From: Anaerolineae bacterium
GTDB lineage: Bacteria; Chloroflexota; Anaerolineae; B4-G1; SLSP01
Assembly: GCA_034437255.1 (NCBI GenBank)
Contig: DAOTUH010000390.1
Location: 1 to 56,035, forward strand
Length of the DNA: 56,035 nucleotides
Reading direction: 5' to 3'
In this document: piece by piece, positions 26,518 to 55,677 of the stretch
How the letters are laid out: every line of letters starts with the position of its first letter
How positions within the stretch are numbered: the first letter of the stretch is position 1
Made by a program: the position numbers and the translations under genes
The notes under the pieces: model-generated
Told to the model about the DNA's origin: nothing
Seen by the model: the letters and a program-made list of their open reading frames with translations, nothing else
The model's database searches: none

Positions 26518-26726
26518 TTCTATCCTCCTCACAAAGTGTACCCTCATTGGGCAAACGAAGCAGTTCCAGGGTGGCTCAGACGCCATAGGCGGATCACAGT
26601 CATGTTTACCACCCACATCAACCCCAACGTCGTTTGCCTTGATCGCGTCTAAGCACGTTCTGGGGTAGCAAGGATGGTTTCAGTAGCCAATTTGTTTCGA
26701 AATCCCGCATTCCAAATGGAAACGGA

Positions 26727-29162
26727 TCAACCACCTTCATTTGCATGGTCCTCTTTGGCTCGCAAACTAACGACTACCCTGCCTAACTCTAACGACTGGC
26801 GTATCTCACTGGCTGCCGCTCTTAGTATCGTTTCCACATTCAATGTCTCACGCATGTGGGCTGCGATCTCGCCGCTGAGCCGTTCACGCGCCGCGCGGCG
26901 TTGGGTATCTTCGTAGAGTCGGGCGCTCTCCAACGCGACGTTCAACTGCTCCGTCACCGTCTCCATCAATGCAATCTCTTCCTCAGACCAAGCTTCATCT
27001 CCGTCTGATTTGCACAGCTTGACCGCCCCCACAACGTTCCCACGAATCTTAACCGGAAGCGCCAACGTCGTCCCGTCCTGCTGCACCCTTTGCCCTTCCC
27101 GGCTCGCTCGCTCCATCACCTCCGGCGAACGTCCCTCGACGGGTCGCGTGCCCTGCACGTTGCTGGCGAACCCCAGATGTGCCCGCCTGCGCACTGCTTC
27201 CAGCCAGGCTTGTCGACTGAGATCCCCATACGCACGTCGCTCCGCTTCCAGGCTCTCCTGCGCCTGCTGGAAGAGCCGGGCGTTGCTGATCGCCATCCCC
27301 ACCTGATCGGCCAGGATTTGCATGACGGCCGCGTCCTCGTTCGTAAACGCGCCCGGCTCCTTGCTTTGCACGTCCAGGGCACCAATGATCTCGCCCCGTG
27401 CGCGCAGTGGCAACGTCATCGCCGAACGAGTCTCCGGTAGATCTGGATTGTCGAAGAAGACGGCGTCCTCGCCCACATCCAGCGCGATGCGGGGCTCGCC
27501 TCGCGCCGTAACGTAGCCCACGGTACCTTTTTCGCCGACCTTCAGCCGGTGCCCCCGCTCCAGCATCCGCTGCCCGCCCACGCTAGAGGCTGCCTGCAAC
27601 ACGGCCCACTCACCGGTCTTGTCGATCAAAAAGAGGCCAGAATGATAAAAACCAAACCGCACACTGATCAGCCGCACCACGCGAGCGAGCAACTCGTCGA
27701 GATCCAGCTCCGAGGCCGCATCGTGCGAGACCTCCGCCGTGGCCTCCAGATACTGGGCACGTTCCTCCAGATCCCGGGTCCGGGCCTCCACGCGCTCCTC
27801 CAGGGAACCGATCAGACCTCGCAGGCGTGCCGCCATATCGTTGAAAGCGGCGGCTAACTGGCCCAGCTCATCCTCCGAGCGCACCGGGACTTGATAATCC
27901 AAATCGCCGGCTGCAATCCGCTCCACACCGTCTATCAACCCATCCAAGGGCCGCCCGGCCACGTTCTGCACACCAAAGTAGACAATCGCCGCCGTCAGCA
28001 AGGTTCCCAGTATCGCCGTCAGTCCGATGCGTCGCACCAACCGTCGAGTCGCCTCCTCCACCTCTGAGACGGGGCTGAAAACAACGGCTCGTAGATCCGA
28101 AGACGTCGAGGGATCGGACCACGCGATCGGCTCCCGGGCGAAGTAGAAATCTCTCTGATCCAACGTCAGGATCGTTTCTTCTTCCTCCAACGACGCGGCT
28201 ACCGTTGCCCCATCGTCATCCTCCAGGCTGGTGATCAACAGCTGTCCGCCTTGAGCCAACCCCACGTTCAACCCCAGTTGATCCGCCATCAAACTCATCA
28301 TCGCGACATCAAATTCCTGCTCCACCAGCGCCACCCCCACCGCCACGGTCTCGGCCTCCCAGGTCTCGGGGTCGGGCACCGGAACTTTTACCGGATACCA
28401 CGTCTGCAGCACCGGAACACCCTCCCTGACGATCACGTCCGAGCGCGGTGGCGCGTCCCGGTCCCAGGTATTGGAGAAGTACTCATACTCTATGGCCTCC
28501 TCCACGGAGGTGAAGCCCTGTTCAACGTAGAACTGGGCCGGCGGCGCAGAGTAGGCTGCGCTGATATCGAAGTAACCGGGCGCCGGGGCGCTAAACGTCT
28601 CCACGTCAATGCTGTACATCACGCGTGCCCCCAGATCGACCTTCTCGGTGAAACGGCTGAGCACGATGCGCTCCTCGTCCAGGCGCAGCGCCAGCACCGG
28701 CCTCGCGTCAACCACCACCTCAAAGGGCGAGATCAGATAGAAGCTGATCGAGGTCAGCTCGTTGAGCCGTTGCGCCGACCGCAACAGCTGCACGAGATTG
28801 AGCTGGGCCTGGAAAGCGTAAATCTGACTGGAGGGTTCGATAGGCTCACCGGCCTGCATAAATTCCTCTGCAAAAGAAGAAGCCGGATCTGCATAATAAG
28901 GCCCGAAATTGGTCAGGAGCTGGAGCTCCTCAACCATAGGCTCACTCTCTTCCATGCTCCTGGTGGTCTCCGCCGCGTTTTGTTCCATCTCCGTGATGCG
29001 CCGGGCGAAGATTTGCGACATGCGAGCCAGATCTTCTTGCTTCACCGCTTCCAGGTCGTTGGAACTGGAGGTACCCACCACAAAGGAGACGCCCGCGGCG
29101 AACAGCAAGAATATCACGCCTACGACGACCGTTAATTTTTGACCAATGCCCCACTTAGCCAT
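26727..29162 (-). CDS. P7, GAF-stub sensor paralog: TM - about 340-aa periplasmic domain of unclear family - TM - HAMP - GAF-A - half-GAF - GAF stub
   Basis: HAMP 'GDLDYQVPVRSEDELGQLAAAFNDM'. 'FGFYHSGLFLIDK..AASSVGG..LPETRSAMTLPL'. Tail 'LESARLYEDTQRRAARERLSGEIAAHMRETLNVETILRAAASEIRQSL'. Confidence 0.85.
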   Translation of the reverse strand: MAKWGIGQKLTVVVGVIFLLFAAGVSFVVGTSSSNDLEAVKQEDLARMSQIFARRITEMEQNAAETTRSMEESEPMVEELQLLTNFGPYYADPASSFAEEFMQAGEPIEPSSQIYAFQAQLNLVQLLRSAQRLNELTSISFYLISPFEVVVDARPVLALRLDEERIVLSRFTEKVDLGARVMYSIDVETFSAPAPGYFDISAAYSAPPAQFYVEQGFTSVEEAIEYEYFSNTWDRDAPPRSDVIVREGVPVLQTWYPVKVPVPDPETWEAETVAVGVALVEQEFDVAMMSLMADQLGLNVGLAQGGQLLITSLEDDDGATVAASLEEEETILTLDQRDFYFAREPIAWSDPSTSSDLRAVVFSPVSEVEEATRRLVRRIGLTAILGTLLTAAIVYFGVQNVAGRPLDGLIDGVERIAAGDLDYQVPVRSEDELGQLAAAFNDMAARLRGLIGSLEERVEARTRDLEERAQYLEATAEVSHDAASELDLDELLARVVRLISVRFGFYHSGLFLIDKTGEWAVLQAASSVGGQRMLERGHRLKVGEKGTVGYVTARGEPRIALDVGEDAVFFDNPDLPETRSAMTLPLRARGEIIGALDVQSKEPGAFTNEDAAVMQILADQVGMAISNARLFQQAQESLEAERRAYGDLSRQAWLEAVRRRAHLGFASNVQGTRPVEGRSPEVMERASREGQRVQQDGTTLALPVKIRGNVVGAVKLCKSDGDEAWSEEEIALMETVTEQLNVALESARLYEDTQRRAARERLSGEIAAHMRETLNVETILRAAASEIRQSLELGRVVVSLRAKEDHANEGG

Positions 29163-29234
29163 AACCAGCCTCTTTACATCTCCCTGCGCTCAGACCATGC
29201 ATGAAATCTCCAAACGTTCAGGTAGAGCATTTGT

Positions 29235-30959
29235 TCACTCTCCCGCCCACTGCTTGACCAGCTCATCGTAGGCAATCGTCCTCGGCCGTTCAGCAGTCCG
29301 CGTCGGCTTAGGTGCTCCGGGCGCAGACAACCATGTCTCAGGATCAAGCAAAGGATTGAGGTCTGGAGAGTACGTCGCCATCCGCATGTTGCCCATCGCC
29401 TCGTCCATCTGTCGGGCGATGGCGTCCATGGCCTGTTGCGGCGTGATCTCGCCCTCAATCGCCCGCGCGATATTGGGCCACCAAAACCCAGCCAACTTGG
29501 GATAGTTGGGCACATTGGGCCCCGTGTCTGTCCATTTGCTCTCCTCGCTGGAACGATAGAACTCGATCAACCCACCCCACTGCGCCTTGCGCGCTGTGAG
29601 ATAATCCGAGAAGATCGTGGAGCGCCGCACCGGTGTGCCGCCTTCCAGGAACTTCTCCAGCGACACCGTCTTAGAGACACAGAATTGGGCCCACAGCCAC
29701 GCCATGCCCCGCCGCTGCCCCTTGACGTTCCGGGGAATCGTCCAGCTTCCCGCGTCCTGATACCCAACCTTCATGCCCGCGTCCCAGTAACGTCCATGGG
29801 GCGTCGGGGCCACGCGCCAGAGCGGATTACCGTCCTCGTCAACCACCGGGTTGCCCGGCTCGTGAAAGGACTCGTCGGAAAGCCAGGTGATATACTGGAA
29901 GATGCGCTGTGCGATATCACCGCGCGAGCCCTTCGGACCGGCGTCCACCCAGCGCCAATCCTTGGCCTCGGGCGGCGCGTACTTGTCCAACCACTCGATG
30001 TACTTGGACAGCGCGTAGACGGCAGCCGGACCGTTGGCCGCGCCCCCGCGCTCGACGGACGCGCCCACGGGAATTCTGTCTTCCACGCGGATGCCCCACT
30101 CATCGACGGGCAAGCCGTTGGGCAATCCTCGGTCCCCCACCCCGGCGATGGAGAGCCAGGCGTCGGTGAAGCGCCATCCCAGGGACGGCGATTTCTTGCC
30201 GTAGTCCAGGTGCCCGTAGACCATCTGCCCATTGATCTCGCGACCGGTGAAGAATTCCGCGATGTCCTCGTAGGCAGCCCAGTTGAGGGGCACGCCCAGC
30301 TCGTAGCCGTATTCCTCTTCAAAATCGGCCTTGATCTCCGGGTCGGTGAACCAATCGTAGCGGAACCAGTAGAGATTGGCGAACTGCTGGTCGGGCAGCT
30401 GCAGTTGGTTGCCATCGTAATCCTGTCCAAATTCGAGATTCAGGAAGTCGTCCAGATCCAGATCGGGATTTGTGAACCGCTCCCCCTCGCCCGCCATGTA
30501 CTCGCTCAGATTGACCACGCCCTGACTGCGCAGATGGGTGCCCACCAGATCGGCATCGTTGACGTATATGTCGTACAGGATGCGCCCCGTGCTCTGCTGC
30601 TCCACCATGCGCTCGACGACGGTGCCCTCGCCCACGATCTCGTGTTCCACGTGAATGCCCGTGATCTCCTCGAAGGCCTGCGCCAGCACCTCGCTCTCCC
30701 AGTAGTGCGTGTTGATGTCCTCCGCCACGGACGTGATGCTGCGCCCCCGGAACGGCGCGGCGGTCTCGGCGAACCAACGCAGCTCGGCCACACGCTCGCG
30801 CCGTGAGAGTGCCGACACGTCGAACTCATCGGCCCACTTTTGCACAGCCGCTTCTATATCCTCCGGCAACTCACCGGATTGGGCCCTCGCTGGCGCCGTG
30901 GGCACCAACAGCGAGAGGCATACGAAAAGGATCAGGCCTTTCGTCAGTGACGGCATCAT
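29235..30959 (-). CDS. orphan extracellular solute-binding protein (family 1, sugar/oligosaccharide-type, 574 aa)
   Basis: Signal peptide 'LILFVCLSLLVPTAPARA'. A Trp/Tyr-rich SBP_bac_1-like sequence ('ANLYWFRYDWFTDPEIKADFEEEYGYELGVPLNWAAYEDIAEFF'). The ATG overlaps the P8 stop (ATGA). No permease or ATPase gene is nearby. Confidence 0.65.
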   Translation of the reverse strand: MMPSLTKGLILFVCLSLLVPTAPARAQSGELPEDIEAAVQKWADEFDVSALSRRERVAELRWFAETAAPFRGRSITSVAEDINTHYWESEVLAQAFEEITGIHVEHEIVGEGTVVERMVEQQSTGRILYDIYVNDADLVGTHLRSQGVVNLSEYMAGEGERFTNPDLDLDDFLNLEFGQDYDGNQLQLPDQQFANLYWFRYDWFTDPEIKADFEEEYGYELGVPLNWAAYEDIAEFFTGREINGQMVYGHLDYGKKSPSLGWRFTDAWLSIAGVGDRGLPNGLPVDEWGIRVEDRIPVGASVERGGAANGPAAVYALSKYIEWLDKYAPPEAKDWRWVDAGPKGSRGDIAQRIFQYITWLSDESFHEPGNPVVDEDGNPLWRVAPTPHGRYWDAGMKVGYQDAGSWTIPRNVKGQRRGMAWLWAQFCVSKTVSLEKFLEGGTPVRRSTIFSDYLTARKAQWGGLIEFYRSSEESKWTDTGPNVPNYPKLAGFWWPNIARAIEGEITPQQAMDAIARQMDEAMGNMRMATYSPDLNPLLDPETWLSAPGAPKPTRTAERPRTIAYDELVKQWAGE

Positions 30960-33900
30960 ACGTCGCCCTCCTCCAAGGCTGAGAGCATAATCCGCACTTC
31001 GGCCTCCTCCAGATTCAATGCCGCGCGCATCTCACGGGCAGCAACCTGGAGCACCGCTTCCACGTCCAGCGACTCGCGTATTCGGGAGGTGATCTCGCCG
31101 GTCAACCGCTCACGAGCGGCGCGGCGCTGGGTGTCCTCGTACAGCCGGGCACTTTCCAGGGTCCGGCCCAACTCCTCGCTCAACGCGTCGAGCAGCTTCT
31201 TCTCCTCGATTGTCCACTTCTGGTCCGTACCATCCTTGCGGAAACGGAGTGTGCCGATGGCTTGATCCCTCACTTTAATTGGCACGTCCAGCACCGCCCC
31301 ATCGCCCTCGGTCTGCACACGCTCGTTCTTCTCGGCGGCCTTCATGATTTCAGGCTGCGGCGTCTCCTCAATGGGAACCACCTCCTGGTTCACGTACCGG
31401 TATCCCCACTCGGTCCGACCTCGCAGCAACTTCTGCCACGCCTCGCCGCTCAGCTGACCGTAGGCCCGCCGCTCCGCTGCCAGCGCTTCCTGGGCTTCAG
31501 CGAAGAGGCGTGCGTTGTCCAACGCCACTGCCAGTTGATCGGCCATGGTCTGCAAGACAGCAATGGTGGCTTCGTCGAAGGCGCCGGGACGCGTGCTCTG
31601 CACCGTCAACGCTCCGACGACCTGGCCACGGGAACGCAACGGCAGGGCTGCCTCGGAGCGGGTCTCCGGCAGCTCGGGCGTTGCCAGGCGCACCGCGTCT
31701 TCCTTCGCCACTTGGGCAATACGTGCCTCTCCGTGGGCGACGCTCCAGCCAATCATCGACGTGCCGCCGACTTCCAGGCGGTGACCGCGACCCAACATCG
31801 CCCGGCCGGCCTCACCGGTCCCGGCCTCCAATACAGCCCATTTCCCGGCTTCGCCCACCAGGAACAACCCAACGTAATAGAGGTCGAACCGCTTGCGGAT
31901 CAGCTCCACGGATTGTTGAATTAACTCTTCTACATCCAGGATCGAGGTCGCAGCCCGGCCCACGTCAGCAGCGGCTTTCAAGCCGCGCGTGCGCTCGGCC
32001 ACCATCTCTTCCAACTCCGTGGCCTGGCTGGAAAGCAACCGTTCCCGCTCTTCATAGTAGTCAATCCTGCTTCTCAGCTCTTCCGGCGATACCTGGAGAT
32101 CAGCAAGAATCCTGCCGTACATCCCAGAAAGCTCGCTGGCTTCTTCAGGGGTCATGAGCACGTCCCGCTCCATGGTCCGGTGAGCCGCTGCCGCTCCAAT
32201 GGACCCGGCTAGCACGCGCTCCACCTCTCCGTAGAATTCAGCCAGCTCGGCCACGGAGATCTGTGCCTTTTCCTCGATTCCCACGGCATCCAGGCTAAAC
32301 TCAATGATATTTGCCACTTGGACATCGTTGAAGTACTGGCTGAGCAACCCCTCCAACACGTCGCATTTGCTAGCTATATCAATGTGAGCTTCACCATAGG
32401 CAAGGAGCCGCAAGGTAGGACCGGCGACCAGCGCATCAACGAAGGCGTCGGCTAGTTCCCGCTCCTCTTCGCTCTGCTCAAAGTAGAGGGAGCCCAACAC
32501 GTATAGTCCGACGTTAAACGTCATCGTCCAGAAGAGCGTATGCGTCAACGGTGATAATCCCACCAGGCCAAAGAGCTGCTCCGGTCGGAGAAACTGGATC
32601 CCCAGAGGCCCCTGTTCCAATAGCGACATCGATAACCAGCCGCTCTTGACCAGGGACGGTAACAATAAAGTATAAGTCCAGGTCAGGAAACCGGCGCTCA
32701 GACCCAAGATGGATCCGGTCTTGTTCCCTCGGCGCCAGAAGATGCCGCCCAAAATAGCCGGAGCAAATTGAAGCGCGGCGGCGAAGGAAATCAGCCCCAT
32801 ATTGACCAGGGTATAGGATTCGCCAATCAGCCGTTCGATGAGATAGCCCAAGAACAAAACAAAGGCGATGACGACCCAGCGGACCTGCAGCAGATTACGC
32901 CGCAGAAAGTCCAGCCCTTTCAACCATTCCAGGGACGGCAGCACAAGATGGTTGACGATCATCGTAGCCGTCGTCATCCCACTGACCATCACCATGCCCG
33001 TGGCTGCCGAGAAACCACCGATGAACGCCATCAGGGCCAACCAGGGCCGGTTTTGGCTCAGCGGCAGCTCCAGCACGAAGGTATCGGCTTCCTGTATTGG
33101 CTGGCCCTGTAGCAGTCCACCCACCGCGATGGGGATGACGAAGATGTTGATCAAAAGCAGGTACAGCGGCAGGAGCCACATGGCGGTACGGATGTGATTC
33201 TCATCGGAGTTCTCCACCACTGCCACGTGAAACTGGCGTGGCAAAAACACAATCGCAGACATAGCTAGAACCAGATACGTCATCCAGGTAAGATACGCTG
33301 AAATATCCTCTCCCGCTCTGCCCATAAGTCCCTGGAAAGGACTTTCCGATAGGCGTTGGAAGATGTCCCCAAATCCATCGTACATGATGTATGTCACAAA
33401 GACGCCCACGGCCAAAAAGGCCACCAGCTTCACGATGCCTTGCACCGCCAGAGCTACGATCATGCCTGGCTGCCGTTCTGTGGGATCCAGGCGCCGTGCG
33501 CCAAAGGCAATCGTGAAGGCCGTCATGGTAGCGACCACGGCAAGGCCGATGGGGCCTTCGCCCCAGGCGCCACCCGCGCCCCCGGCAGCGACCATCGTGG
33601 TGAACGTGGAGGTCACCGACTTCAACTGGAGCGCAATATACGGCGTGATCCCCACCAGGGCGATGATCGTCGCGATGGCGGCTAGGGCCGGTGATTTCTC
33701 ATAGCGGGCCGAGATAAAGTCCGCGATGCTGGTGATGCGATGGGCGGCCTTGATTCGCACCAGCTTGCGCAGCACGAGCCACCACAGGGCGATCATCATC
33801 GTCGGTCCCAGGTAAATCGTCAAGAAGAGCGCACCGGAGCTGGCAGCGTTGCCCACACTGCCATAGTAGGTCCAGGAGGTGCAATAGACGGCCAGCGCCA

Positions 33901-34030
33901 GTACGTACACCAGCGGGCTCCCGGCCAATCGCCGCGCGTGGAGTGAGCCGCGCTCCACCCACTGCGCGATCAGAAACAGAAAGCCTATGTACAGCACAAG
34001 CGCTGCAATAATCGTAGCCACACTAAGCAT
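30956..34030 (-). CDS. P8, GAF-stub sensor paralog: SLC5/sodium:solute-symporter-like 12-13 TM domain - helical linker - coiled coil - GAF-A - half-GAF - GAF stub
   Basis: The first 510 aa or so are polytopic with an SSF-like pattern ('ITSIADFISARYEKSPALAAIATIIALVGITPYIALQLKSV', 'FLPRQFHV', 'GGFSAATGMV'). Then 'FDLYYVGLFLVGE..AGTGEAG..LPETRSEAALPL'. Tail 'LESARLYEDTQRRAARERLTGEITSRIRESLDVEAVLQVAAREMRAAL'. Confidence 0.85.
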   Translation of the reverse strand: MLSVATIIAALVLYIGFLFLIAQWVERGSLHARRLAGSPLVYVLALAVYCTSWTYYGSVGNAASSGALFLTIYLGPTMMIALWWLVLRKLVRIKAAHRITSIADFISARYEKSPALAAIATIIALVGITPYIALQLKSVTSTFTTMVAAGGAGGAWGEGPIGLAVVATMTAFTIAFGARRLDPTERQPGMIVALAVQGIVKLVAFLAVGVFVTYIMYDGFGDIFQRLSESPFQGLMGRAGEDISAYLTWMTYLVLAMSAIVFLPRQFHVAVVENSDENHIRTAMWLLPLYLLLINIFVIPIAVGGLLQGQPIQEADTFVLELPLSQNRPWLALMAFIGGFSAATGMVMVSGMTTATMIVNHLVLPSLEWLKGLDFLRRNLLQVRWVVIAFVLFLGYLIERLIGESYTLVNMGLISFAAALQFAPAILGGIFWRRGNKTGSILGLSAGFLTWTYTLLLPSLVKSGWLSMSLLEQGPLGIQFLRPEQLFGLVGLSPLTHTLFWTMTFNVGLYVLGSLYFEQSEEERELADAFVDALVAGPTLRLLAYGEAHIDIASKCDVLEGLLSQYFNDVQVANIIEFSLDAVGIEEKAQISVAELAEFYGEVERVLAGSIGAAAAHRTMERDVLMTPEEASELSGMYGRILADLQVSPEELRSRIDYYEERERLLSSQATELEEMVAERTRGLKAAADVGRAATSILDVEELIQQSVELIRKRFDLYYVGLFLVGEAGKWAVLEAGTGEAGRAMLGRGHRLEVGGTSMIGWSVAHGEARIAQVAKEDAVRLATPELPETRSEAALPLRSRGQVVGALTVQSTRPGAFDEATIAVLQTMADQLAVALDNARLFAEAQEALAAERRAYGQLSGEAWQKLLRGRTEWGYRYVNQEVVPIEETPQPEIMKAAEKNERVQTEGDGAVLDVPIKVRDQAIGTLRFRKDGTDQKWTIEEKKLLDALSEELGRTLESARLYEDTQRRAARERLTGEITSRIRESLDVEAVLQVAAREMRAALNLEEAEVRIMLSALEEGDV

Positions 34031-34289
34031 CGCTCACCTCTCCGCCTTTCCCACCATCCTTCCCTTCCTCCATTTCCGATGTATCAGCAGGAACCGACGT
34101 GGAACTTCGGGCCACAAGAAACAACAAGATAATGATCCCCGCCCAGGGAAGGTACAAGGATCGCATCACGGGATCGGGACGCGCTACGGCGAACATGACT
34201 AATAACGGTCGCGTGAACAGGATCAAACAGAGGCCGAAGAGCAAGATGTGAAACTCCGATCGTCCTAACAACGTCCTTAGCCTTTTCAT
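34023..34289 (-). CDS. small (88 aa) two-TM membrane protein, translationally coupled to P8
   Basis: Two hydrophobic spans ('FHILLFGLCLILFTRPLLVMFAV' and 'LYLPWAGIIILLFLVA') and an acidic tail. It starts 7 nt after the P9 stop, and its stop overlaps the P8 start by 8 nt. The position is analogous to small DUF485/YjcH-type partners of SSF transporters, but no sequence similarity is claimed. Confidence 0.5.
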   Translation of the reverse strand: MKRLRTLLGRSEFHILLFGLCLILFTRPLLVMFAVARPDPVMRSLYLPWAGIIILLFLVARSSTSVPADTSEMEEGKDGGKGGEVSDA

Positions 34290-34296
34290 CTTCAGA

Positions 34297-36981
34297 TCAC
34301 TCCTCTGCTTCCATCCGCACTTCTATCTCAGCAATGCCCAATCGCTCTCCCATCTCACGAAGGGCCGTACGGAGTATGACATCCATGTCCAACTTCTCGC
34401 GCATACGAGATGTGATTTCACCTAACATCTGCTCACGAGCGGCGCGGCGCTGGGTGTCCTCGTAGAGACGCGCGCTCTCCAGTGCGCGCCCCAACTCTTC
34501 TGTCAGCGCCTCCAACAGCACTTGCTCTTCGGCGATCCAAGCCTGTCCTGGTTCCGCTTTGCTGAAATTCAGCACGCCAACAACGCGATCACGCACTCGG
34601 AGAGGCACAGCCAACGTCGCCATATCTGACGCATCCTCTACGAAGCCCTGTACACTTTGCTCTCTGTTGACGGCGCGATGCATCTCAGGCGTCCAATTAT
34701 CGTCTTGGGCCGGCACAGTGGTTGTACCCTGATAGTCATAGCCCCAATTGGAACGAGCTTGCAGGATCTTGGCCCATGCTTGACGGCTCAACTCTCCATA
34801 GGCGCGGCGCTCTGCCTCTAGCGAGGCCTGCGCTTCCGTGAACAATCTTGCGTTATCCAATGCCACAGCAATTTGATCTGCCATCGTCTGCAACAACGTG
34901 ATAGTATCACGATCAAAGGCATTGGGCACAGTGCTCTGAATCGTGAGTGCACCGCGCACCTGACCACGAGAACGCAAAGGGAGTGCTCCCTCAGAACGCG
35001 TCTCAGGCAAATGAGGATTATCAAAGCGCACAGCCTCATCGCCGACATCCAGTGCAATTCGCGCCTCTGCATATTTGATGCATTGGCCGATCATGGAGTC
35101 CCCGCCCACCCGTAGTCTATGTTCTTCAGCCAGCATTTTACGTCCTGCTTCACCGGTTCCTGCTCGCAAGACAGCCCAATTCCCCTCGACCAGGAAAAGT
35201 CCTACGTAATAGAGGCCAAAGCGCTCACGAATCAAAACCACCGCTTCACGGATCAAACGATCGCGCTCCAAGATCGAGGCAATGGTGTGGCTTACCTCGC
35301 CCGCAGTCTCTAGATACGCCGATCGTTCTTCTAGCTCACGGGTCCGATCAGCGACACGTTCCTCAAGACTGCCAATGAATTCCCGCAGCTGGCGAGTCAT
35401 GCTGTTAAAAGCACCCGCCAAGGCGCCAATCTCGTCTTCCCGTTCTGTCTCTACAGTGATGAGTTCCTGATCCCCAGATGCGATCTGTTGAGCCGTATCA
35501 GCCAGTCTCGCCAGTGGAACTGTGATCGTGTTGGTAAGAATGATAGAGACAATAACTACCCCTAACACCGCTCCAACCGCAATCCCCGCATCTAGCAGCA
35601 ACAACCGGCTGACGCCGCGAAAGGCCTCGCTGGCATCCTGTTCTGCCACCAATGCGACCCGGAAATCCGGTAGCCAATGATAAACTCCTACCACAGCAAC
35701 GTCCCGGTAATTTTTGTACTGTCCGCTACCCTTCGTTTTCTGTCCAATCGCCATGGTGGTTGCTTCAGAACGAATGTAAGCTATACTCTCTGCCTCGAAC
35801 CTTGACGTCGTAAGCAGGGCGTAGTTAGATCCTACTAGATAAGTCTCACCCGTCTCACCCAGCCCGGCGCGCTCAAGCATAATGCTACTGAGAGCATCCA
35901 TATCCGCCCGGCCTGCCAGAACTGCGACTGGTTCATTCTCTTGGTTGGTCAAGGGACGGGCTGCCAACACCAAGGTCTCCTCAAGTGATGGTGAATAAGA
36001 AGGGGGATGCACATAAGGGCCTTGTAGTCCTTCTTGAAAGAACGTGTCACGGGCGTAAACTTTGCCCTGTTGTGTCGGGTCCGTGGATATAAAGACTTGT
36101 CCGTCGAGATCCATCACAAACATCTCTTCGAAGAGTCCCATCTGTTCGATAGCCCATTGAAGATGTTCCTGGATACTTTCGTACGTCGATTGGCTCGCTG
36201 ACGCTGAACCTATAATCTCTTCAAGTTGATCTGGAAGTTGAGAACTGGTAGCTACAACATCAAGATTCACCACCAGATCATCCAACCAGGCTTGAATCTC
36301 CGCTTGTTTGAGTGTGGCAACGGATTCAAGCTGGTTCTCTACCTGTTGTCGGATCTGATCACGGGCCACTAAGAACGCGCTGCCTCCAATAACCAAGGCC
36401 AATAACAGTACCAAGGGCACGTACGTAATCAGCAAGCGGGAGCGAATGGTACGCAGACGACCGCGAGCAATCACATACTGCCAGACAATAAACAAAGTTA
36501 AGAGGCCTAGGACGGAGAGATAGGCAATAAGCTGCCCTCCGGTATCCGCCAAAACACGACGAGGCAACGGTGCTAACCAGTTAACTAACACGACAAAAAC
36601 TAGATACCCCACCGCGGCACCTAACCCGACAACCCAGCGATGCGGTAGCAACAGAGCCCCTACAAACAGCAACAGCACAGCCACCAATGCAGTTAATATC
36701 GGATCTTGAACCCAGAGCAGTTCGTCGACACCGATTCCCAAAAATGTAGCCAGCAATATCCAATAGGCAGCTCGGTCGAGAGTCTCTTGCCGGAGAGCTT
36801 GCCAGGCCAATATCAAACAGCCAAGAGCCAGCAAAATAAAGCCGGCATCGGCCAAGATATACCAGGCCTGCGTCCTATAATAATCTCTCACATCGGCAGC
36901 AAGCCCGACAATAGCAACCACTAAGCCGATCAGAATGATCCGCCTCATGACCAGAGCGCGCTGCTTGAGCTGTTCAGACAT
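34297..36981 (-). CDS. P9, GAF-stub sensor paralog: about 7 TM - Cache-like periplasmic domain - TM - HAMP - GAF-A - half-GAF - GAF stub
   Basis: Cache-like segment 'FVMDLDGQVFISTDP..YVHPPSYSPSLEETLVLAARPL..ETYLVGSNYALLT..VVGVYHWLPDFRVALVAEQDASEAF'. HAMP 'GDQELITVETEREDEIGALAGAFNSM'. 'FGLYYVGLFLVEG..AGTGEAG..LPETRSEGALPL'. Tail 'LESARLYEDTQRRAAREQMLGEITSRMREKLDMDVILRTALREMGERL'. Confidence 0.85.
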   Translation of the reverse strand: MSEQLKQRALVMRRIILIGLVVAIVGLAADVRDYYRTQAWYILADAGFILLALGCLILAWQALRQETLDRAAYWILLATFLGIGVDELLWVQDPILTALVAVLLLFVGALLLPHRWVVGLGAAVGYLVFVVLVNWLAPLPRRVLADTGGQLIAYLSVLGLLTLFIVWQYVIARGRLRTIRSRLLITYVPLVLLLALVIGGSAFLVARDQIRQQVENQLESVATLKQAEIQAWLDDLVVNLDVVATSSQLPDQLEEIIGSASASQSTYESIQEHLQWAIEQMGLFEEMFVMDLDGQVFISTDPTQQGKVYARDTFFQEGLQGPYVHPPSYSPSLEETLVLAARPLTNQENEPVAVLAGRADMDALSSIMLERAGLGETGETYLVGSNYALLTTSRFEAESIAYIRSEATTMAIGQKTKGSGQYKNYRDVAVVGVYHWLPDFRVALVAEQDASEAFRGVSRLLLLDAGIAVGAVLGVVIVSIILTNTITVPLARLADTAQQIASGDQELITVETEREDEIGALAGAFNSMTRQLREFIGSLEERVADRTRELEERSAYLETAGEVSHTIASILERDRLIREAVVLIRERFGLYYVGLFLVEGNWAVLRAGTGEAGRKMLAEEHRLRVGGDSMIGQCIKYAEARIALDVGDEAVRFDNPHLPETRSEGALPLRSRGQVRGALTIQSTVPNAFDRDTITLLQTMADQIAVALDNARLFTEAQASLEAERRAYGELSRQAWAKILQARSNWGYDYQGTTTVPAQDDNWTPEMHRAVNREQSVQGFVEDASDMATLAVPLRVRDRVVGVLNFSKAEPGQAWIAEEQVLLEALTEELGRALESARLYEDTQRRAAREQMLGEITSRMREKLDMDVILRTALREMGERLGIAEIEVRMEAEE

Positions 36982-37015
36982 ATTTATCTCCGCTTGACAA
37001 TGGCTCTAGTAGAGA

Positions 37016-38005: not shown

Positions 38006-38049
38006 TTCTACCTCCTGTATCTTCTTCACTGTTGTACTACGTCCAAAAT

Positions 38050-41486: not shown

Positions 41487-41507
41487 AGCTCCAAACTCCG
41501 CATCCGT

Positions 41508-43169: not shown

Positions 43170-43181
43170 AAGCGCACCTCC

Positions 43182-45044: not shown

Positions 45045-45048
45045 ACCA

Positions 45049-46770: not shown

Positions 46771-46802
46771 ACCCAACTCCTAAACTAAATGCCCAGGCGT
46801 CG

Positions 46803-49800
46803 TTAGCTTTCCTCATCAAGTCCACCGGAATCCACCAACCGGACGGTAACTTTCTCCAGATCCAACGCCTGATAGATTGCATCGGCGGCTGTGCGTAAGA
46901 CCGTCTCCACATCGAGCCGTTCTCGCACCCGCCCCGTGACGTCCCCCAGCAGGTGCTCGCGCGCGGCTGCGCGCTGGCTCTCCTCAAACAGGCGCAGGTT
47001 CTCCGCCGTCGACGCCATGCGTTCGGTCAACAGTTTCGCCATCTCGATTTCGTCGGCGGTCCAACTGCGCCCGGCGCTCTTCAAGGCCACCGCGCCAATG
47101 GGCTGGCCCCGGACGAGAGCGGGAATCACCAAAATCTCCTCCGCGACCTCGCCATCCTGTCCGTCCCGTGCCAGCACCACAACCGCTCGTTGGCGCACGG
47201 CCTGTTGTATGGACGCCTGCAGCTCATCGTCCACCACGATGTCACCGGAACGTTCCAGTTGATAGATGAGCTCTGGCTGCGTTTGGAGGTACTCCTCCCA
47301 TGCCTGCTGAATGTAGCGCCGTTGCATCGTCTCCATCTCTGCCAGCGCGGATTGCGTTTGCTCCAATAAGCGGGCGTTCTCGATAGCCGTCGCGATCTGA
47401 CCGACCATGGTCTGGAAGGCCGTGACATCCTCTTCGGTGAAAGCCGCGACATCCGTAGAATGGACCGTCAACGCCCCGATGGGTTTGCCCCGGCTGAGCA
47501 ACGGCAGAGCCATCTCCGAGCGCGTTTCCGGTAACAGCGGGTGATCCAACCCTCGCGTGCTTTTGGTGACGTCAGTCACGATGTGCGGTTGCCCATCCGA
47601 GATGCAAACCCCGACCAACGAGTTGTCGTTCACGGGAAGCTGGTAACCTTCATCCAGCATCTTTCGCCCCGACACACCCGTGCCGCCACGCAGGACAGCC
47701 CACCGTCCAGACCGGCGGGACCATTCACCGCGCTCACTGATTAAGAAGAGCCCCACGTAGTAAAGATCGAAGCGCTCGCGCACAAGATCCACCACACGCT
47801 GCAGCAACGTATCGACGTCCAGAATGCCAGTGACAGTATAAGCCACATCGGCGGCGATTTGAAGCTGATTGCTGCGGCGTTCCAACGCGAGCATCGCTTC
47901 CTTGAGGGGGGTGATATTGCGGGAGACGCCAAAGACGCCCACAATCTCGCCCTCTCTATCTCGCATGGGCAGCTTCGACGTCGAGACCCACGCCACTGTA
48001 CCGTTGGGCCACGTCTCTTTCTCCTCCTTCTCCAGAATCGGCTCGCCGGTGCGGATAATCTCTTGTTCGTCTTCGTAAGCTTCGCGGGCGTGCTTTTCCG
48101 TGAAGAAGTCGAAGTCGGTCTTGCCGATGATTTCCTCCCGGCTTTCCACGCCGAACCAGTCCAGCAGTGCCTGACTCACCTCAATAAAGCGGCTCTCGCG
48201 ATCCTTGAAGAAAATGTGGTCCAACGTGTTCTCCAGGAGAACGTGGAGCAAATACTCTTGATAAGCAAGGGCTTCTTCTGCTTCTCGACGCTCGGCGATC
48301 TCCCGCTGCGCCTGTTCGTAGAGCCGGGCATTGGCAATCGCGTTTCCCAGCTGATCGGCCAAGAGCTGCAATGTGGTGATATCCATCTCGCCAAAGGCCC
48401 TGGGTTCCGTGCTCTGAATGGTCAAGGCGCCGATGGCTTCTCCACGGCTGACCAGAGGCAACGCCATCTCCGAACGAGTATCTGGCAGCCAGGGATTATC
48501 AAACCGCGAGGCCTCCTGGCCCACGTCCAGTGCAACGTGAGCCTCCTTTTCCGCCACAGACCGGCCGATCATGGACTCGGCCCCCACACGCAACTTGTGC
48601 TGGCGAGCGACCATCTCGCGGCCCGCCTCTCCTGTGCCGGCTTGGAGCACGGCCCACTCGCCCGAATCATCGACCAGGAACAAGCCGGCATAGTAGAGAT
48701 CGAACTGCTCACGGACCAACTCGACAACGCGCTGAATCAGGGTCTCGGTCTTCAGGAGCGAGCCGGTCGCTTGGGCGACCTCTGCCGCCGTCTGAATACG
48801 CGCGGCACGTCGTTCGGCTCGCTCCACAAGCTGACTTCCATACAGAGCCCTGCTGATATCCCGCTGAAGAATGTCGTAAATCTCTCCACGCTGCGGACGG
48901 GCATCGAAGAGCACAAACCCAAGTTGGTGCTCGCGGAAATACAGTGGCTCAACGTGCAAACTGAATCGCTGAGACGGTAGCAGATCCGAAGGCACCAATT
49001 TCTGGGAAGGGAAACGTATCTCTTCGGATATAAGATGCTGCCCGTTCGCGTAGGCCAGAAGCAAGCGGGCTCCCGTCGTCGGCGCCAAGGGATTCTCATA
49101 CAGCGAAAGATAACAACCGGGGATATCCAGACGTTCCATGGCTTCGGTGAGGCGCCGCATCATCTCATCCACAGCCAGTGAGATGCTAAGCGTCTGGCCA
49201 ATTTGGGCTAGCAGCGTCCGCAAACCCACCTCCCGGAAACGTCGATCCGCCTGTACCCGGGCGGCCCACTCGCCAACTTTGACGCGACCTCGCTGCCAGA
49301 GCTCTTCTGCGCGCATCAGCGACCGCACCGTGTCCAAGGCCACCAGCAGCTCCCGGCGCATCGCAGAGAGCACATCTTGCCAACACGCGATGTTGACGTC
49401 GTTCTCAGCGCTGGCGCGAAGTATTTCCTCCAAACAAGCCAAAAACTCGTCACTGGATGTCGCATTGATGTCCACAATCAGTGCGTCCAGCAGTTTCGTG
49501 AGCCTTCCATCCTCATCCTGCCCCGACAACGCCGGCGTTACATCGCGCATCGCCGCCAGAACCTGGGTGACGACCGCATCAGACACCACGAAGTCAGAGT
49601 CAGACTCGGAAACAGAGACCTTCGACAGATCCGGAGAGGCTACCAGTTCAACACTACGTGCTTCACAGCCACAGGACTCGCGCACCACGAGATGAGGCGG
49701 CACTTTGATAATCTCCGGCAGTGATTCTTCACCCTCGAGCTCTCTGATGAGCAGCTGAGCCGCCCGGCGACCCATCTCGGCCCAGGGCTGATCGACGGAT

Positions 49801-50552
49801 GTCAACGGAGGTGTAGCAAAACGGGCTTCGGGACGATTATCGAACCCTACCACCGCCACGTCACGAGGAATGTATAAACCTCTGGCTGGTAACCCTTCAA
49901 CCACGTCCATGGCTAACTGATCGTTGGCCGCTACCACCCCATCAAAGGAAACCTTTCGTTCCTCTATCAGCAGTCGCAAAGCCTTTAAACCTGTGCCCCG
50001 CGCAAAGTCACCAGGAGCAACGAGTTCAGGATCGACTTCCAATCCATGATCGCGCAGTGCGTGCCGATATCCACGGTAGCGTGCCTCAGCCTCGATGTGA
50101 CCCTCCGGCCCACGAATAAACGCGAGTCTTTCACAACCATGCACGTCCAGGAGGTGTGTCACAGCATCATAGGTACCCTGGTAGTTATCAATGAGCACGT
50201 TAGGCATACCCGGCAAGTGCGATGAGATGTTCACCTTAGGAATTCCAGCGTACGTCTTCAATAACGCCAGAACTTCTTCGTGATTCACGTAGTGAGCCAG
50301 TATTCCTCCCCAGATCACGAGACCATCGAGTCGTTCAGCACTTGCCAGCTTGTAGAGGACATTGCACTGCGCCAGATGCTCTTCTGGGATACGCAGCGGT
50401 TCTGCTCGAAAACTGATCAAATTGACGTCGTGCTCACGGGCAACCGTATCCACGCCCCTCCAAAGCGCGCGACACGTTGGATCCTCAGCTCCGTAGATCA
50501 ACAGGCCAATCGTAGGGCGTGTGAGTGCTGTCGTGTTGGATGGTTCCATCAT
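46803..50552 (-). CDS. P15, soluble GAF-stub sensor paralog: LacI-type periplasmic-binding-protein fold (no HTH) - helical region - GAF-A - PAS - GAF-A - half-GAF - GAF stub
   Basis: The N-terminal part 'IGLLIYGAEDP..LDGLVIWGG..NVLIDNYQGTYDAVTHLLDVHGCERLAFIRGPEGHIEAEARYRGYRHAL..AANDQLAMDVV..VVGFDN' is a LacI/GalR ligand-binding core lacking the DNA-binding headpiece. PAS 'FFKDRESRFIEVSQA..GKTDFDFF..WVSTSKLPMRDREGEIVGVFGVSRNIT'. Two GAF-A copies (LPDTRSE and LPETRSE). No TM segment. The start ATG at 50552 follows AGGAG by 9 nt and sits 1 nt after the P16 stop (the ORF track extends to 50630). Confidence 0.85.
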   Translation of the reverse strand: MMEPSNTTALTRPTIGLLIYGAEDPTCRALWRGVDTVAREHDVNLISFRAEPLRIPEEHLAQCNVLYKLASAERLDGLVIWGGILAHYVNHEEVLALLKTYAGIPKVNISSHLPGMPNVLIDNYQGTYDAVTHLLDVHGCERLAFIRGPEGHIEAEARYRGYRHALRDHGLEVDPELVAPGDFARGTGLKALRLLIEERKVSFDGVVAANDQLAMDVVEGLPARGLYIPRDVAVVGFDNRPEARFATPPLTSVDQPWAEMGRRAAQLLIRELEGEESLPEIIKVPPHLVVRESCGCEARSVELVASPDLSKVSVSESDSDFVVSDAVVTQVLAAMRDVTPALSGQDEDGRLTKLLDALIVDINATSSDEFLACLEEILRASAENDVNIACWQDVLSAMRRELLVALDTVRSLMRAEELWQRGRVKVGEWAARVQADRRFREVGLRTLLAQIGQTLSISLAVDEMMRRLTEAMERLDIPGCYLSLYENPLAPTTGARLLLAYANGQHLISEEIRFPSQKLVPSDLLPSQRFSLHVEPLYFREHQLGFVLFDARPQRGEIYDILQRDISRALYGSQLVERAERRAARIQTAAEVAQATGSLLKTETLIQRVVELVREQFDLYYAGLFLVDDSGEWAVLQAGTGEAGREMVARQHKLRVGAESMIGRSVAEKEAHVALDVGQEASRFDNPWLPDTRSEMALPLVSRGEAIGALTIQSTEPRAFGEMDITTLQLLADQLGNAIANARLYEQAQREIAERREAEEALAYQEYLLHVLLENTLDHIFFKDRESRFIEVSQALLDWFGVESREEIIGKTDFDFFTEKHAREAYEDEQEIIRTGEPILEKEEKETWPNGTVAWVSTSKLPMRDREGEIVGVFGVSRNITPLKEAMLALERRSNQLQIAADVAYTVTGILDVDTLLQRVVDLVRERFDLYYVGLFLISERGEWSRRSGRWAVLRGGTGVSGRKMLDEGYQLPVNDNSLVGVCISDGQPHIVTDVTKSTRGLDHPLLPETRSEMALPLLSRGKPIGALTVHSTDVAAFTEEDVTAFQTMVGQIATAIENARLLEQTQSALAEMETMQRRYIQQAWEEYLQTQPELIYQLERSGDIVVDDELQASIQQAVRQRAVVVLARDGQDGEVAEEILVIPALVRGQPIGAVALKSAGRSWTADEIEMAKLLTERMASTAENLRLFEESQRAAAREHLLGDVTGRVRERLDVETVLRTAADAIYQALDLEKVTVRLVDSGGLDEES

Positions 50553-50553
50553 C

Positions 50554-52446
50554 TTATTGTGCTCCTTCATCCGATCGCTGCGGCGCCGCTCTCGTCTGTG
50601 TGCCGAGCTGCAGGTAGGCACTCCCGCCAAGCGTCTCCACCAAGGATTTCGCCGTAATCTGAAGCAGCGATCTCATATCCGACGCTTGCCGCATCCGATC
50701 TGTAACGTCGTGGGCTGCTTGCTCACGAGCCACGCGCCGCTGCGTCGCCTCTAGCAAACGAATGTTCTCCAGCACCACCGCTGCCGTCGCCACCAACGCA
50801 GTGTAGAGTTGTCGTTCGCTCACGCCAAAGGGGTGCACGGTGTAATACGTGACCACCAGCTGCGCAATGGTTCGCCTGCCCAACCGCACCGGAACGATGG
50901 CCAGGCTGCGCGCCGCGGACTGGTGCATCAACTGCGCCAGCTGCTTGTGATACATCTCTGGAACGTGACTGGCCGGCAGCTCACTCATATTCTCTATAAA
51001 TAAGGGGCTCTCTGACGCCACCAGCAGCTCTCGCAAGTATAGCGTCTCCGGAAGGGTGGGTCGGGCGCCATCTTCTTCAGGAAAAGAGATGTCGTCGCCC
51101 CGCAACTCTGCTGCCACAGTGATATCGTTGGTCTCAGCGTCTAGGGTACAGATAAAACCGCGCCTGGGACTATACTCCCGGACCATCTCCAAGATCACAC
51201 CGTAGACATCGCGCACTTGACGGGCAACCGCCATACGCTGCGCCATCCGGTAGAAAGGACTGGTCGCCTCAAGGATCCCAACCTCCTGAGCAAAGCGCCG
51301 CGCGTTTTCCACCATCACGGCCAGCTGACTGGCAAGATACTCCAAAGAACGCACGTCATCTTCGTCAAAGGCATTTTCTTCCGTACTCTGCACGTCCAAC
51401 ACCCCGATGACTTGTCCGGCGATCCCCAGGGGCAGCGTCGCCTCCGAACGGGTGGCCGGCAGCAAGGGATTATCAAAATGCACGGCGTCTTCACCCACGT
51501 CCAGGGAAATGCGGGGCTTGCCGTGCTCCACCACCCATCCGACCATGCCTTCACCCCGAACCAATTGATGCTCCTCGGCCAGCATCTGCTGCCCGCCTTC
51601 TGACGACGCGGCCTTCAGCACGGCGGTGTCGCCGGTTTCTGAGACCAGAAAGAGGCCCGTGTGGTAGAAGCCAAACTTCTCAGAGATCAAACGCACAGCC
51701 CGATACAACAACTGCTCCAAATCAAAAATCGAACTGATGATCCGCACGACTTCTGCGCCCGCTTCCAAATGCCAGGCGCGTCGCTGCATGGCGTAGTTGG
51801 CCTCTTGAAGCGTCAAAGCGCGACGATCCAGCTCCTCTTGTTGCTCGCGGAGATCTGTTGAGCGCTGAAAGAATTCTTCTAGCTGTCGCGATAGGCGCCT
51901 GAACAAGGCCCCGGCCGAGGCCACCAGAAGCCCACCGCTCAACGTGAAGACCATCACCCCGCTGAGCAGGTTCAACCAGGGTCGTGGGACCTCAGAGAGT
52001 ATACCCGGCCCCGCGACTTGGCCCCTCATGATCGCCCAGGCGATGCCCAACAACGTCAGCATATCAAGGCCCAGAGCGTAAAACCCCGCCCGCTGGCCGA
52101 TCAAAATGGTCATCATGACCGGTAGAGCCAGCAGAAAGACTCGCCCATCAGCACCCCAGCCGGAAAAGACAAGATCGGACAGGCCCAAAATGTAGATCAA
52201 CGCCAACATCAACCATTTTTTCAACGGGTAGTAGGGCTTGTGACCAAAGTGCAAGGCCAGCATACTCCCATAGGCCACGACATAGACCGCAATCAAACCA
52301 AAGTTCTGCTGTGAAAAGGCGGTGTATACACCAAATGCCAAAGCGCCGGCCCCGCCATACACCGCGGCCCGAAATGCCTGATCAATCACGCGTTGTCGCA
52401 GCCGCTCTGTAACCGTCTGATAGGAACGTCCCTGCTTTTCGCTCAC
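50554..52446 (-). CDS. P16, GAF-stub sensor paralog: class-II polytopic membrane module - coiled coil - GAF-A - complete second GAF - GAF stub
   Basis: 'GWGADGRVFLLALPVMMTILIGQRAG'. 'FGFYHTGLFLVSE..AASSEGG..LPATRSEATLPL'. Tail 'LENIRLLEATQRRVAREQAAHDVTDRMRQASDMRSLLQITAKSLVETL'. The GTG start has GGAGG 5 nt upstream. Confidence 0.85.
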   Translation of the reverse strand: MSEKQGRSYQTVTERLRQRVIDQAFRAAVYGGAGALAFGVYTAFSQQNFGLIAVYVVAYGSMLALHFGHKPYYPLKKWLMLALIYILGLSDLVFSGWGADGRVFLLALPVMMTILIGQRAGFYALGLDMLTLLGIAWAIMRGQVAGPGILSEVPRPWLNLLSGVMVFTLSGGLLVASAGALFRRLSRQLEEFFQRSTDLREQQEELDRRALTLQEANYAMQRRAWHLEAGAEVVRIISSIFDLEQLLYRAVRLISEKFGFYHTGLFLVSETGDTAVLKAASSEGGQQMLAEEHQLVRGEGMVGWVVEHGKPRISLDVGEDAVHFDNPLLPATRSEATLPLGIAGQVIGVLDVQSTEENAFDEDDVRSLEYLASQLAVMVENARRFAQEVGILEATSPFYRMAQRMAVARQVRDVYGVILEMVREYSPRRGFICTLDAETNDITVAAELRGDDISFPEEDGARPTLPETLYLRELLVASESPLFIENMSELPASHVPEMYHKQLAQLMHQSAARSLAIVPVRLGRRTIAQLVVTYYTVHPFGVSERQLYTALVATAAVVLENIRLLEATQRRVAREQAAHDVTDRMRQASDMRSLLQITAKSLVETLGGSAYLQLGTQTRAAPQRSDEGAQ

Positions 52447-52469
52447 ACCAACCTCCGACTTATCACGTG

Positions 52470-55189: not shown

Positions 55190-55217
55190 TCTATTACCTA
55201 CCTCATCATATATGCCA

Positions 55218-55592: not shown

Positions 55593-55668
55593 GCTCACTT
55601 CCTTAATAGAATGGTCACACCCGATCGAAACAGCGTAAAATATCGTCGGCTTGTGATTTCTGACCAAT

Positions 55669-55677
55669 ATTATACCA
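55669..55677 (-). promoter_or_regulatory. candidate extended -10 promoter (minus strand TGgTATAAT) heading the receiver-kinase-sensor array
   Basis: The minus strand reads ..ATTGTGGTATAATATTGG... TATAAT is at 55674-55669 with TG at 55677-55676, about 75 nt upstream of the first receiver ATG. It lies in the only long AT-rich gap at the 5' end of the array. No good -35 is present. Confidence 0.35.

Follow-up and report, generated by a model that had tools for sequence, protein, structure and literature searches.

Paired receivers, kinase-less GAF sensors and a hybrid kinase in a conserved, co-directional gene cluster of Anaerolineae: evidence on operon extent and signal routing

Introduction

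Contig DAOTUH010000390.1 (C390) of the 612-contig assembly of an Anaerolineales bacterium, analyzed here over its whole length of 56,035 nucleotides and referred to as the window, carries a long series of genes for signalling proteins in which two single-domain receivers (REC1 and REC2) and a histidine kinase are followed by GAF-containing sensors devoid of a kinase. A preliminary description of the sequence had raised the possibility that the 29 kb between positions 55592 and 26727 correspond to a giant operon, and had hinted that the sensors feed into, or are regulated with, the kinase and receivers at its head. The locus raises two questions, namely, how much of this series is transcribed as a unit and by what route sensors with no output domain could signal. 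Very long bacterial operons are known, including the Bacillus subtilis fla/che operon (~26 kb) and giant polyketide synthase operons. As described below, the 29-kb run is, as judged from sequence, the promoter-proximal part of a conserved signalling cluster in which 25 genes occupy ~50 kb of a single strand. The cluster is co-directional and tightly spaced, carries a conserved promoter motif at its head and contains no conserved internal break. It very probably comprises one or a few giant operons, with predicted co-transcription, translational coupling and coupling of the sensors to a kinase.

Results

The gene series is a conserved, co-directional cluster

All sizeable genes from 55592 down to 5889 were found on the minus strand, in the order REC1, REC2, the head kinase (P17), 15 kinase-less GAF sensors (S1 to S15) together with four solute-binding partners, a methyltransferase and a hybrid kinase. 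The sensor tail module, the N-terminus of the head kinase, REC1 and REC2 were used as queries in searches of 30 related genomes, and the cluster was mapped in eight other Anaerolineae (G002, G009, G013, G018, G023, G045, G073, and G133) from four families. In all eight, the cluster lies on a single strand with no opposite-strand gene intervening, such that co-directionality holds without exception in nine genomes. The mapped clusters run from REC1 and REC2 through the kinase, where present, to the sensors, then to a methyltransferase or a ParA-like ATPase, where present, and to the hybrid kinase. A REC1 orthologue heads the cluster in each of the eight genomes. At the other end, the hybrid kinase orthologue is the last gene in G002, G009, G018, and G023, and is followed by one or two genes in G045, G073, and G133; the contig of G013 stops before the hybrid kinase. 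Because the genes upstream of REC1 differ between genomes, the neighbor being a xanthine-dehydrogenase-like gene, a YfhO-like gene or a tRNA-like sequence, REC1 was taken as the 5' boundary. The lower limit previously set at 26727 turned out to be arbitrary, in that it corresponds to a repeat-bearing spacer and not to the end of the conserved unit, which continues to the hybrid kinase at 5889.

Comparison by reciprocal best hits revealed the head (REC1, REC2, head kinase, and S1) and the tail (S14, the ABC-binding protein, S15, the methyltransferase, and the hybrid kinase) of the cluster to be collinear, with the middle of the array being reshuffled and variable in gene number. Wherever contigs permit, the receivers and the kinase are found upstream of the sensors on the same strand, P17 directly preceding S1 in five genomes. 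An orthologue of the P17 N-terminus is present as a single copy in 28 of 31 genomes and REC2 in 27, always directly upstream of the head kinase. Neither was found in G014, G027, and G029, the same three genomes in which matches to the tail module were only weak. REC2 is also missing from a fourth genome, of 88% completeness, whose kinase match lies on a contig other than that of the array, such that an assembly gap is possible.

These data bear on the idea that the array reflects tandem duplication only, the sensors being functionally unconnected to the receivers and kinases and not under selection to be co-transcribed. The head-to-tail arrangement of 15 sensors sharing a module of ~350 residues is what duplication would generate, yet the paralogues are old, with orthologues in other genera and families, and unrelated genes are kept at both the head and the tail across families. 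Moreover, the detection of REC2 and the head kinase across genomes parallels that of the array, all strong tail-module copies of the present genome are confined to the one cluster, and neither arrays without linked receivers or hybrid kinase nor dispersed sensors were seen among the genomes examined. Duplication alone is thus considered highly improbable.

A promoter motif is conserved upstream of REC1

The extended -10 element TGGTATAAT reported earlier upstream of REC1 was confirmed, being the sole match to TGNTATAAT on either strand of the window. In 26 of 27 genomes, representing three families, the exact sequence TGnTATAAT moreover precedes REC1 by 32-226 nt, despite the REC1 upstream flanks being unalignable across families. 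In five of the six clusters of 46-58 kb, it occurs only once on the array strand, with G018 carrying a second exact copy 83 nt before an S15-like gene. Across the present genome, 146 copies of the motif were counted, with a 12-fold enrichment in intergenic DNA, and ~2% of genes are preceded by one. Given that so few genes are preceded by the motif, its retention at REC1 is not a generic property of upstream regions. When relaxed sigma-70-like matches were instead counted inside the array, eight were found against 9.7 and 8.0 expected, i.e., the level of chance.

A palindrome of the form TAACY-N4-RGTTA (TTAACYnAAYRGTTA-like) starts 36-46 nt upstream of the -10 element in 13 of the 16 genomes examined from family f1, two of these copies having diverged in the 3' half-site. 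Its position makes it a good candidate for an operator or activator site. The existence of a wider regulon was considered and rejected, since of five matches to the palindrome genome-wide, only the copy at REC1 adjoins an extended -10 element.

Gene spacing is tight at the head and interrupted farther downstream

From REC1 (55592) to the stop codon at 26727, the successive stop/start distances, with negative values denoting overlaps, are 28, -16, 23, 1, 26, 4, 12, 21, -4, 20, 34, 7, -8, -4, and 72 nt, i.e., 15 junctions of no more than 72 nt. This run contains 16 genes rather than the 17 counted previously, and 14 of the 15 distances given at that time were reproduced, the other being that between S6 and S7, which is a 4-nt GTGA overlap and not one of a single nucleotide. 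A Shine-Dalgarno-like motif precedes 15 of the 16 starts. Some values depend on the gene models used. Two starts are possible for the NMT1-type gene, GTG at 38029 (gap of 20 nt) and ATG at 38005 (gap of 44 nt), and the junctions of 7 and -8 nt hinge on an 88-residue open reading frame (ORF; 34023-34289), for which no similar small ORF was detected in the eight other clusters (blastp, E<=1e-10). Based on a crude ORF caller, 55% of same-strand gaps across the genome are of 72 nt or less, and therefore a run of 15 such junctions is only mildly improbable (0.55^15 ~ 1e-4 per start). With the same caller, the longest directon of the assembly lies on C390. The tight run is broken into fragments by this caller, the largest of which shares first place in gene number (10) and is the longest in span (20.5 kb).

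In three relatives, the entire cluster is similarly compact. No gap exceeds 65 nt among the 20 genes (36 kb) of G002, and the corresponding maxima are 95 nt for the 20 genes (40 kb) of G009 and 71 nt for the 21 genes (45 kb) of G045, with the proviso that the start-codon heuristic applied to the relatives favors early starts, such that gaps may be underestimated. In G018, G013, and G023, gaps of 100-170 nt appear at varying positions. In the present genome, spacing loosens beyond 26727. While the distances of 41, 2, -4, -4, and 93 nt earlier listed for the genes then termed P6 to P2 were reproduced, larger gaps separate S10 from the Peripla_BP_4 gene (~210 nt, with the start of the latter placed at ATG 26517), the Peripla_BP_4 gene from S11 (415 nt), S15 from the methyltransferase gene (162 nt), and the methyltransferase gene from the hybrid kinase gene (481 nt).

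Dispersed repeats (A, B, and C) were identified in three of these four gaps. They are short, non-coding and present in ~117, 106, and 42 copies, respectively, and resemble miniature inverted-repeat transposable elements (MITEs). Two of the three possess inverted ends of 19-29 nt and fold as long hairpins (z = -3.5 and -6.3), the lower value belonging to repeat B, which folds as one long hairpin of -66.6 kcal/mol. A separate 11-bp hairpin (~25301-25326) stands directly past the stop codon of the Peripla_BP_4 gene. The repeats were also considered as the full cause of the large gaps. This was rejected, since AT-rich spacers of ~120, 233, and 330 nt remain once they are removed; the repeats therefore widen these gaps without being their sole cause. 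Given the presence of repeats in the large gaps, several transcripts are likely in this genome. It was also noted that repeat C abuts the start of the long version of the binding protein ORF, which favors the downstream ATG at 26517, that repeat A recurs at 4031-4221, with several of its copies beginning or ending within ~100 nt of a contig end, and that repeat B recurs at 1439-1585.

Terminators were sought with a purpose-written scan for hairpins followed by a T-tract, used in place of a standard scan that returned weak matches at or near the level of shuffled sequence and missed the terminator at 5462-5481. No terminator was detected at any junction of the cluster, in agreement with what had been stated for the tight run, nor at gene junctions in the nine clusters scanned, Rho-dependent sites not being predictable. 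One imperfect candidate (41381-41422) lies within the S6 coding region. In the complete genome G073, the internal junctions are free of terminators, while a clean one stands on either side of the cluster, upstream of REC1 behind the tRNA-like sequence and 6 nt past the final gene.

One transcript or several?

The explanation that we consider probable is that of a conserved cluster served by an upstream promoter, expressed as long coupled transcripts and built around a shared phosphorylation core. Transcription would start at the extended -10 element before REC1, with the palindrome upstream as a presumed operator, the motifs being conserved and their function predicted. Read-through of the tightly spaced and often overlapping genes would follow, probably accompanied by translational coupling. 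In the present genome, the 16 genes from REC1 to S10 would form one very long transcript, and the repeat-bearing, AT-rich gaps after S10, after the Peripla_BP_4 gene and before the hybrid kinase gene would probably split the remainder of the cluster into two or three further units. Such co-expression would supply many alternative inputs in step with a small phosphorylation core common to all. Sensors lacking an enzymatic output would act by docking on a kinase, more likely the tail hybrid kinase than the head kinase, and phosphoryl groups would end on REC1 and REC2.

Several points weigh against this explanation. The four large gaps of the present genome (~210, 415, 162, and 481 nt) are AT-rich, three hold strongly folding repeats, and promoter-like hexamers are present in them, at the level of chance. 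Short gaps are compatible with promoters located inside upstream coding regions, and those of the relatives may, as noted, be larger than measured. The lack of internal terminators is nearly uninformative, since only 2.5% of the genes in this genome are followed by a canonical intrinsic terminator. Finally, no Hpt domain, DNA-binding protein or enzymatic output is encoded in the window.

The chief competing explanation is a supra-operon, in which each sensor or small group of sensors is expressed from its own promoter, located in the end of the preceding gene, and no transcript of at least 29 kb is made. This would account for mean paralogue identities of only 35-60% and for the reshuffling of the middle of the array between genera, the modules working in any order, as well as for the behavior of solute-binding protein and sensor pairs as movable two-gene units. 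Nonetheless, co-directionality is kept in nine genomes with no exception, and most junctions are of 35 nt or less or overlap (16 of 24 in the present genome and 14 of 19 in G002). The second extended -10 element of G018 would suit an internal start, although five of the six clusters have no exact copy inside the array and relaxed sigma-70-like matches there do not exceed chance, internal promoters of other types being possible. The wider gaps seen at varying places in G018, G013, and G023 and the tolerance of repeat insertions inside the cluster of the present genome are likewise consistent with independent promoters. On balance, a supra-operon is considered possible, if rather unlikely.

Under the preferred explanation, i.e., long coupled transcripts, different stretches merit different confidence. 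For the 28.9 kb from REC1 to S10, the chances of a single transcript in this organism are judged to be about even, and a single transcript covering the whole 50 kb here appears quite unlikely. The gap-free clusters of G002, G009, and G045 (36-45 kb) could equally well prove to be single operons or not. What stands of the giant operon as first suggested is the conserved co-directional tight block headed by two receivers and a conserved promoter motif, and not its extent nor, in all likelihood in this genome, a single transcript over the whole cluster.

Sensors share a tandem-GAF-like stalk and lack a recognized output domain

The 15 sensors share a C-terminal module of ~350 residues (35-60% identity), preceded by varied input parts, including MASE11, dCache and 4HB/HAMP domains, LacI-type or ABC-type binding-protein folds, and a symporter-like membrane domain. 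The last of these, at the N-terminus of S9, gave weak MctP/symporter matches that fall under the family cut-offs. Four free-standing binding proteins are also encoded, namely, an NMT1/SsuA-like protein, a secreted protein of 574 residues (X574), a Peripla_BP_4 protein, and an ABC_sub_bind protein. The pairs ABC-binding protein/S15 and X574/S10 are adjacent in every genome holding both orthologues; X574 adjoins the S10 orthologue in G018 and G023, with 76-84% identity. The S8 orthologue is closely preceded by the NMT1-type gene in G023 and also, with one short ORF in between, in G002.

The stalk common to the sensors consists of a GAF domain, a long helix, a small alpha/beta domain and a second long helix. 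The last 369 residues of S7 were modeled with AlphaFold2 using 107 homologues. The model (predicted local distance difference test score, 90) comprises a long helix, a GAF domain, a 52-residue helix, a small alpha/beta domain, a 46-residue helix and a short helix. In Foldseek searches, it resembled the tandem-GAF modules 1mc0, 3lfv, 1ykd, and 4o01 (E ~1e-9 to 1e-10), such that the module can be described, on the basis of the model, as a GAF domain, a connecting helix and a second GAF-like domain. No fused catalytic output was found, with the sensors ending 5-25 residues past the last helices and containing no further Pfam domain.

Both kinases present HisKA and HATPase_c domains, and both single-domain receivers possess the acidic pocket, acceptor Asp, Thr and Lys of the two-component family. 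With a mean column identity of 78% across 27 genomes from three families, REC2 is far more conserved than are the sensors, which suggests a conserved partner surface. The CEWKASGW insertion of REC2 sits after helix 1, and its conserved tail reads GEEVWE.

The hybrid kinase is the more likely partner of the sensors

The preliminary description had hinted at sensors that feed into, or are regulated with, a phosphorelay of P17 and CheY-like receivers, which was considered here as wiring specific to P17 and the two receivers at the head. P17 indeed overlaps REC2 by 16 nt, directly precedes S1 in five genomes, and has orthologues in all 28 genomes with strong tail-module matches and in none of the three without. 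At the same time, P17 comes with a membrane sensor and a HAMP domain and so is a complete sensor kinase on its own. In addition, genomes of the sister family f4 (G073 and G133) retain REC1, REC2, 5-12 sensors and the hybrid kinase without P17. Finally, the P17 GAF domain shares 25-32% identity with those of the sensors, as compared to 38-60% for the first GAF domain of the hybrid kinase against every sensor GAF domain, a value matching the closeness of the sensors to each other. Specific wiring to P17 is accordingly no longer favored and is judged unlikely.

Because of these GAF identities and of the f4 clusters that lack P17, the tail hybrid kinase is more likely than P17 to be the partner of the sensors. 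The sensor tails are, furthermore, homologous to the GAF-to-GAF junctions of the hybrid kinase. With chances that are roughly even, the sensors may be relatives of the hybrid kinase that have no kinase part and that modulate the enzyme through heteromeric contacts. Should the sensors act on the hybrid kinase, P17 would be one more sensor kinase, complete in itself and paired with REC2. The unique N-terminal 150 residues of the hybrid kinase were also considered as a universal docking domain, an idea that was discounted, given that this region is kept only in G002 and G009.

Accessory genes and other features

The coordinates of the cluster genes and of the other features discussed are collected in Table 1. 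Among the relatives, the methyltransferase was found in G002 and G009 only. In other families, a ParA/MinD-like ATPase takes its place, at L016:13784-14572 (G073) and L021:16900-18039 (G045). The G045 cluster also includes a FIST-domain protein, a Peripla_BP_6 protein, and a PAS-GAF-STAS protein. In other families, the hybrid kinase is followed by a fusion of a pyridoxal phosphate (PLP)-dependent enzyme and a REC domain, accompanied by either an exporter or a PAS-GAF-STAS protein. The orthologue of this PLP-enzyme-REC fusion in the present genome (57% identical) lies on contig C562 (1616-4602), unlinked to the array in this assembly and adjoining a REC-histidine-kinase gene. No response-regulator enzyme output was identified inside the window.

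The next gene after the cluster (5508-5774) encodes a ferredoxin of 88 residues and is preceded by its own near-consensus promoter, TTGACA-17-TAAAAT. Rfam and tRNA scans of the window found no RNA element. At the other extremity, the contig end (55895-56035) matches parts of contigs C148 and C78 at 99% identity. Its core (55896-55931; 33-38 nt) is present in 33 copies, many within ~200 nt of a contig end, and this repeat probably breaks the assembly.

Table 1. Positions of cluster genes, promoter elements, repeats and terminator in the window.
Feature	Position	Strand	Remarks
REC1, single-domain receiver, 124 aa	55218-55592	-	Pfam Response_reg, E=1e-28; Asp acceptor, Thr and Lys conserved
REC2, single-domain receiver, 139 aa	54770-55189	-	Pfam; invariant CEWKASGW insertion, VW tail
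Head histidine kinase P17, HAMP-GAF-HisKA-HATPase, 771 aa	52470-54785	-	Pfam; start overlaps REC2 by 16 nt
S1, MASE11-GAF and tail module	50554-52446	-
S2, LacI-type periplasmic-binding-like domain, GAF, PAS, GAF, tail module	46803-50552	-
S3, MASE11-GAF and tail module	45049-46776	-
S4, HAMP-GAF and tail module	43182-45044	-
S5, membrane N-terminus, GAF, tail module	41508-43169	-
S6, MASE11-GAF and tail module	39753-41486	-
S7, membrane N-terminus, GAF, tail module	38050-39756	-	Sensor used for structure model
NMT1/SsuA-like solute-binding protein	37016-38029	-	Adjoins S8
S8, dCache-HAMP-GAF and tail module	34297-36981	-
88-aa two-helix membrane ORF	34023-34289	-	Overlaps S9 start by 8 nt; without family match
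S9, sodium/solute-symporter-like membrane domain, GAF, tail module	30956-34030	-
X574, 574-aa secreted protein	29235-30959	-	Probable solute-binding partner of S10; signal-peptide-like N-terminus; without family match
S10, HAMP-GAF and tail module	26727-29162	-	Closes tight block
Sugar-type periplasmic binding protein, Peripla_BP_4	25342-26517	-	Best start ATG 26517, after GAGGAGG
S11, 4HB/HAMP-GAF and tail module	22686-24926	-
S12	20959-22644	-
S13, ABC_sub_bind-like domain, GAF, tail module	18662-20956	-
S14	16890-18665	-
ABC_sub_bind solute-binding protein	15790-16893	-	Conserved partner of S15
S15, HAMP and three GAF	12724-15696	-
S-adenosylmethionine-dependent methyltransferase, Methyltransf_19 (PF04672)	11773-12561	-	Accessory
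Tail hybrid kinase, seven GAF, HisKA, HATPase, two REC, 1800 aa	5889-11291	-	3' end of conserved cluster
Extended -10 element TGGTATAAT	55669-55677	-	Sole TGNTATAAT match in window, both strands
Palindrome TAACC-N4-GGTTA, candidate operator	55709-55722	-	Starts 46 nt upstream of extended -10
TTGACG-16-TACAAT, putative promoter	55824-55851	-	10/12 matches; also in same-genus G002
Dispersed repeat C, ~90 nt	26617-26706	.	S10-Peripla_BP_4 gap; ~42 copies, 70-88% identity
MITE-like repeat A, ~182 nt	25091-25272	.	Peripla_BP_4-S11 gap; ~117 copies, 75-90% identity; 19-nt inverted ends
MITE-like repeat B, ~151 nt	11350-11500	.	Gap before hybrid kinase; ~106 copies, up to 96% identity
Clean bidirectional intrinsic terminator	5462-5481	.	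First after cluster; behind ferredoxin gene

Discussion

The cluster can be compared with several known systems. Like very long operons, it combines many co-directional genes, short or overlapping junctions and a single upstream promoter motif, with its 29-50 kb falling within the range of such operons. It differs from these in its content, almost wholly signalling receptors, in that its transcription as a unit is a prediction, and in the repeats that, in this genome, interrupt the run. The resemblance to chemosensory pathways, built of methyl-accepting chemotaxis proteins, CheW, CheA, CheY, and CheR, lies in the joining of diverse inputs (HAMP, dCache and 4HB domains and binding-protein partners) to one shared cytoplasmic module, in the location of many receptors beside few kinases and single-domain receivers, and in the accessory methyltransferase or ParA-like ATPase seen in some lineages. 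Here, however, the module is GAF-based, the kinases are of the HisKA type and the methyltransferase is a member of PF04672 rather than of the CheR family. The scanned cluster proteins gave no Pfam match to MCPsignal, CheW or CheA.

The tandem-GAF modules of PDE2A/PDE5, CyaB2 and phytochromes present the same succession of GAF domain, long helix and second alpha/beta domain. In those proteins, however, the module drives a fused catalytic domain via helices, whereas in the sensors the chain ends. Hybrid histidine-kinase phosphorelays likewise share with the cluster HisKA/HATPase kinases, receiver domains with intact acceptor residues and solute-binding proteins encoded beside membrane sensors. 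Unlike these, the cluster contains neither Hpt nor output regulator, and 15 separate kinase-less sensors take the place of fused inputs.

A literature search yielded no published description of the system. It is tentatively proposed, as a possibility that we rate below even, that the cluster encodes an undescribed receptor system in which at least 12 kinase-less membrane receptors, each equipped with its own input domain or solute-binding partner and produced from a single mRNA of 36-54 kb, would co-assemble with and share one multi-GAF hybrid kinase via the GAF stalk, much as chemoreceptors share CheA. If so, the cluster would be among the longest signalling operons and would provide a new way of funneling many signals into one phosphorylation output.

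Should the cluster be transcribed as one or a few giant transcripts, it would rank with the longest known signalling operons and offer a clear case of gene clustering serving the co-production of interchangeable receptors with a small kinase-receiver core. How a sensor without an output domain signals becomes addressable in these kinase-less GAF receptors, given the hybrid kinase, the head kinase, REC1 and REC2 as defined components. Finally, the conserved promoter and palindrome provide a handle on the switching of sensory repertoires in abundant, mostly uncultured filamentous bacteria.

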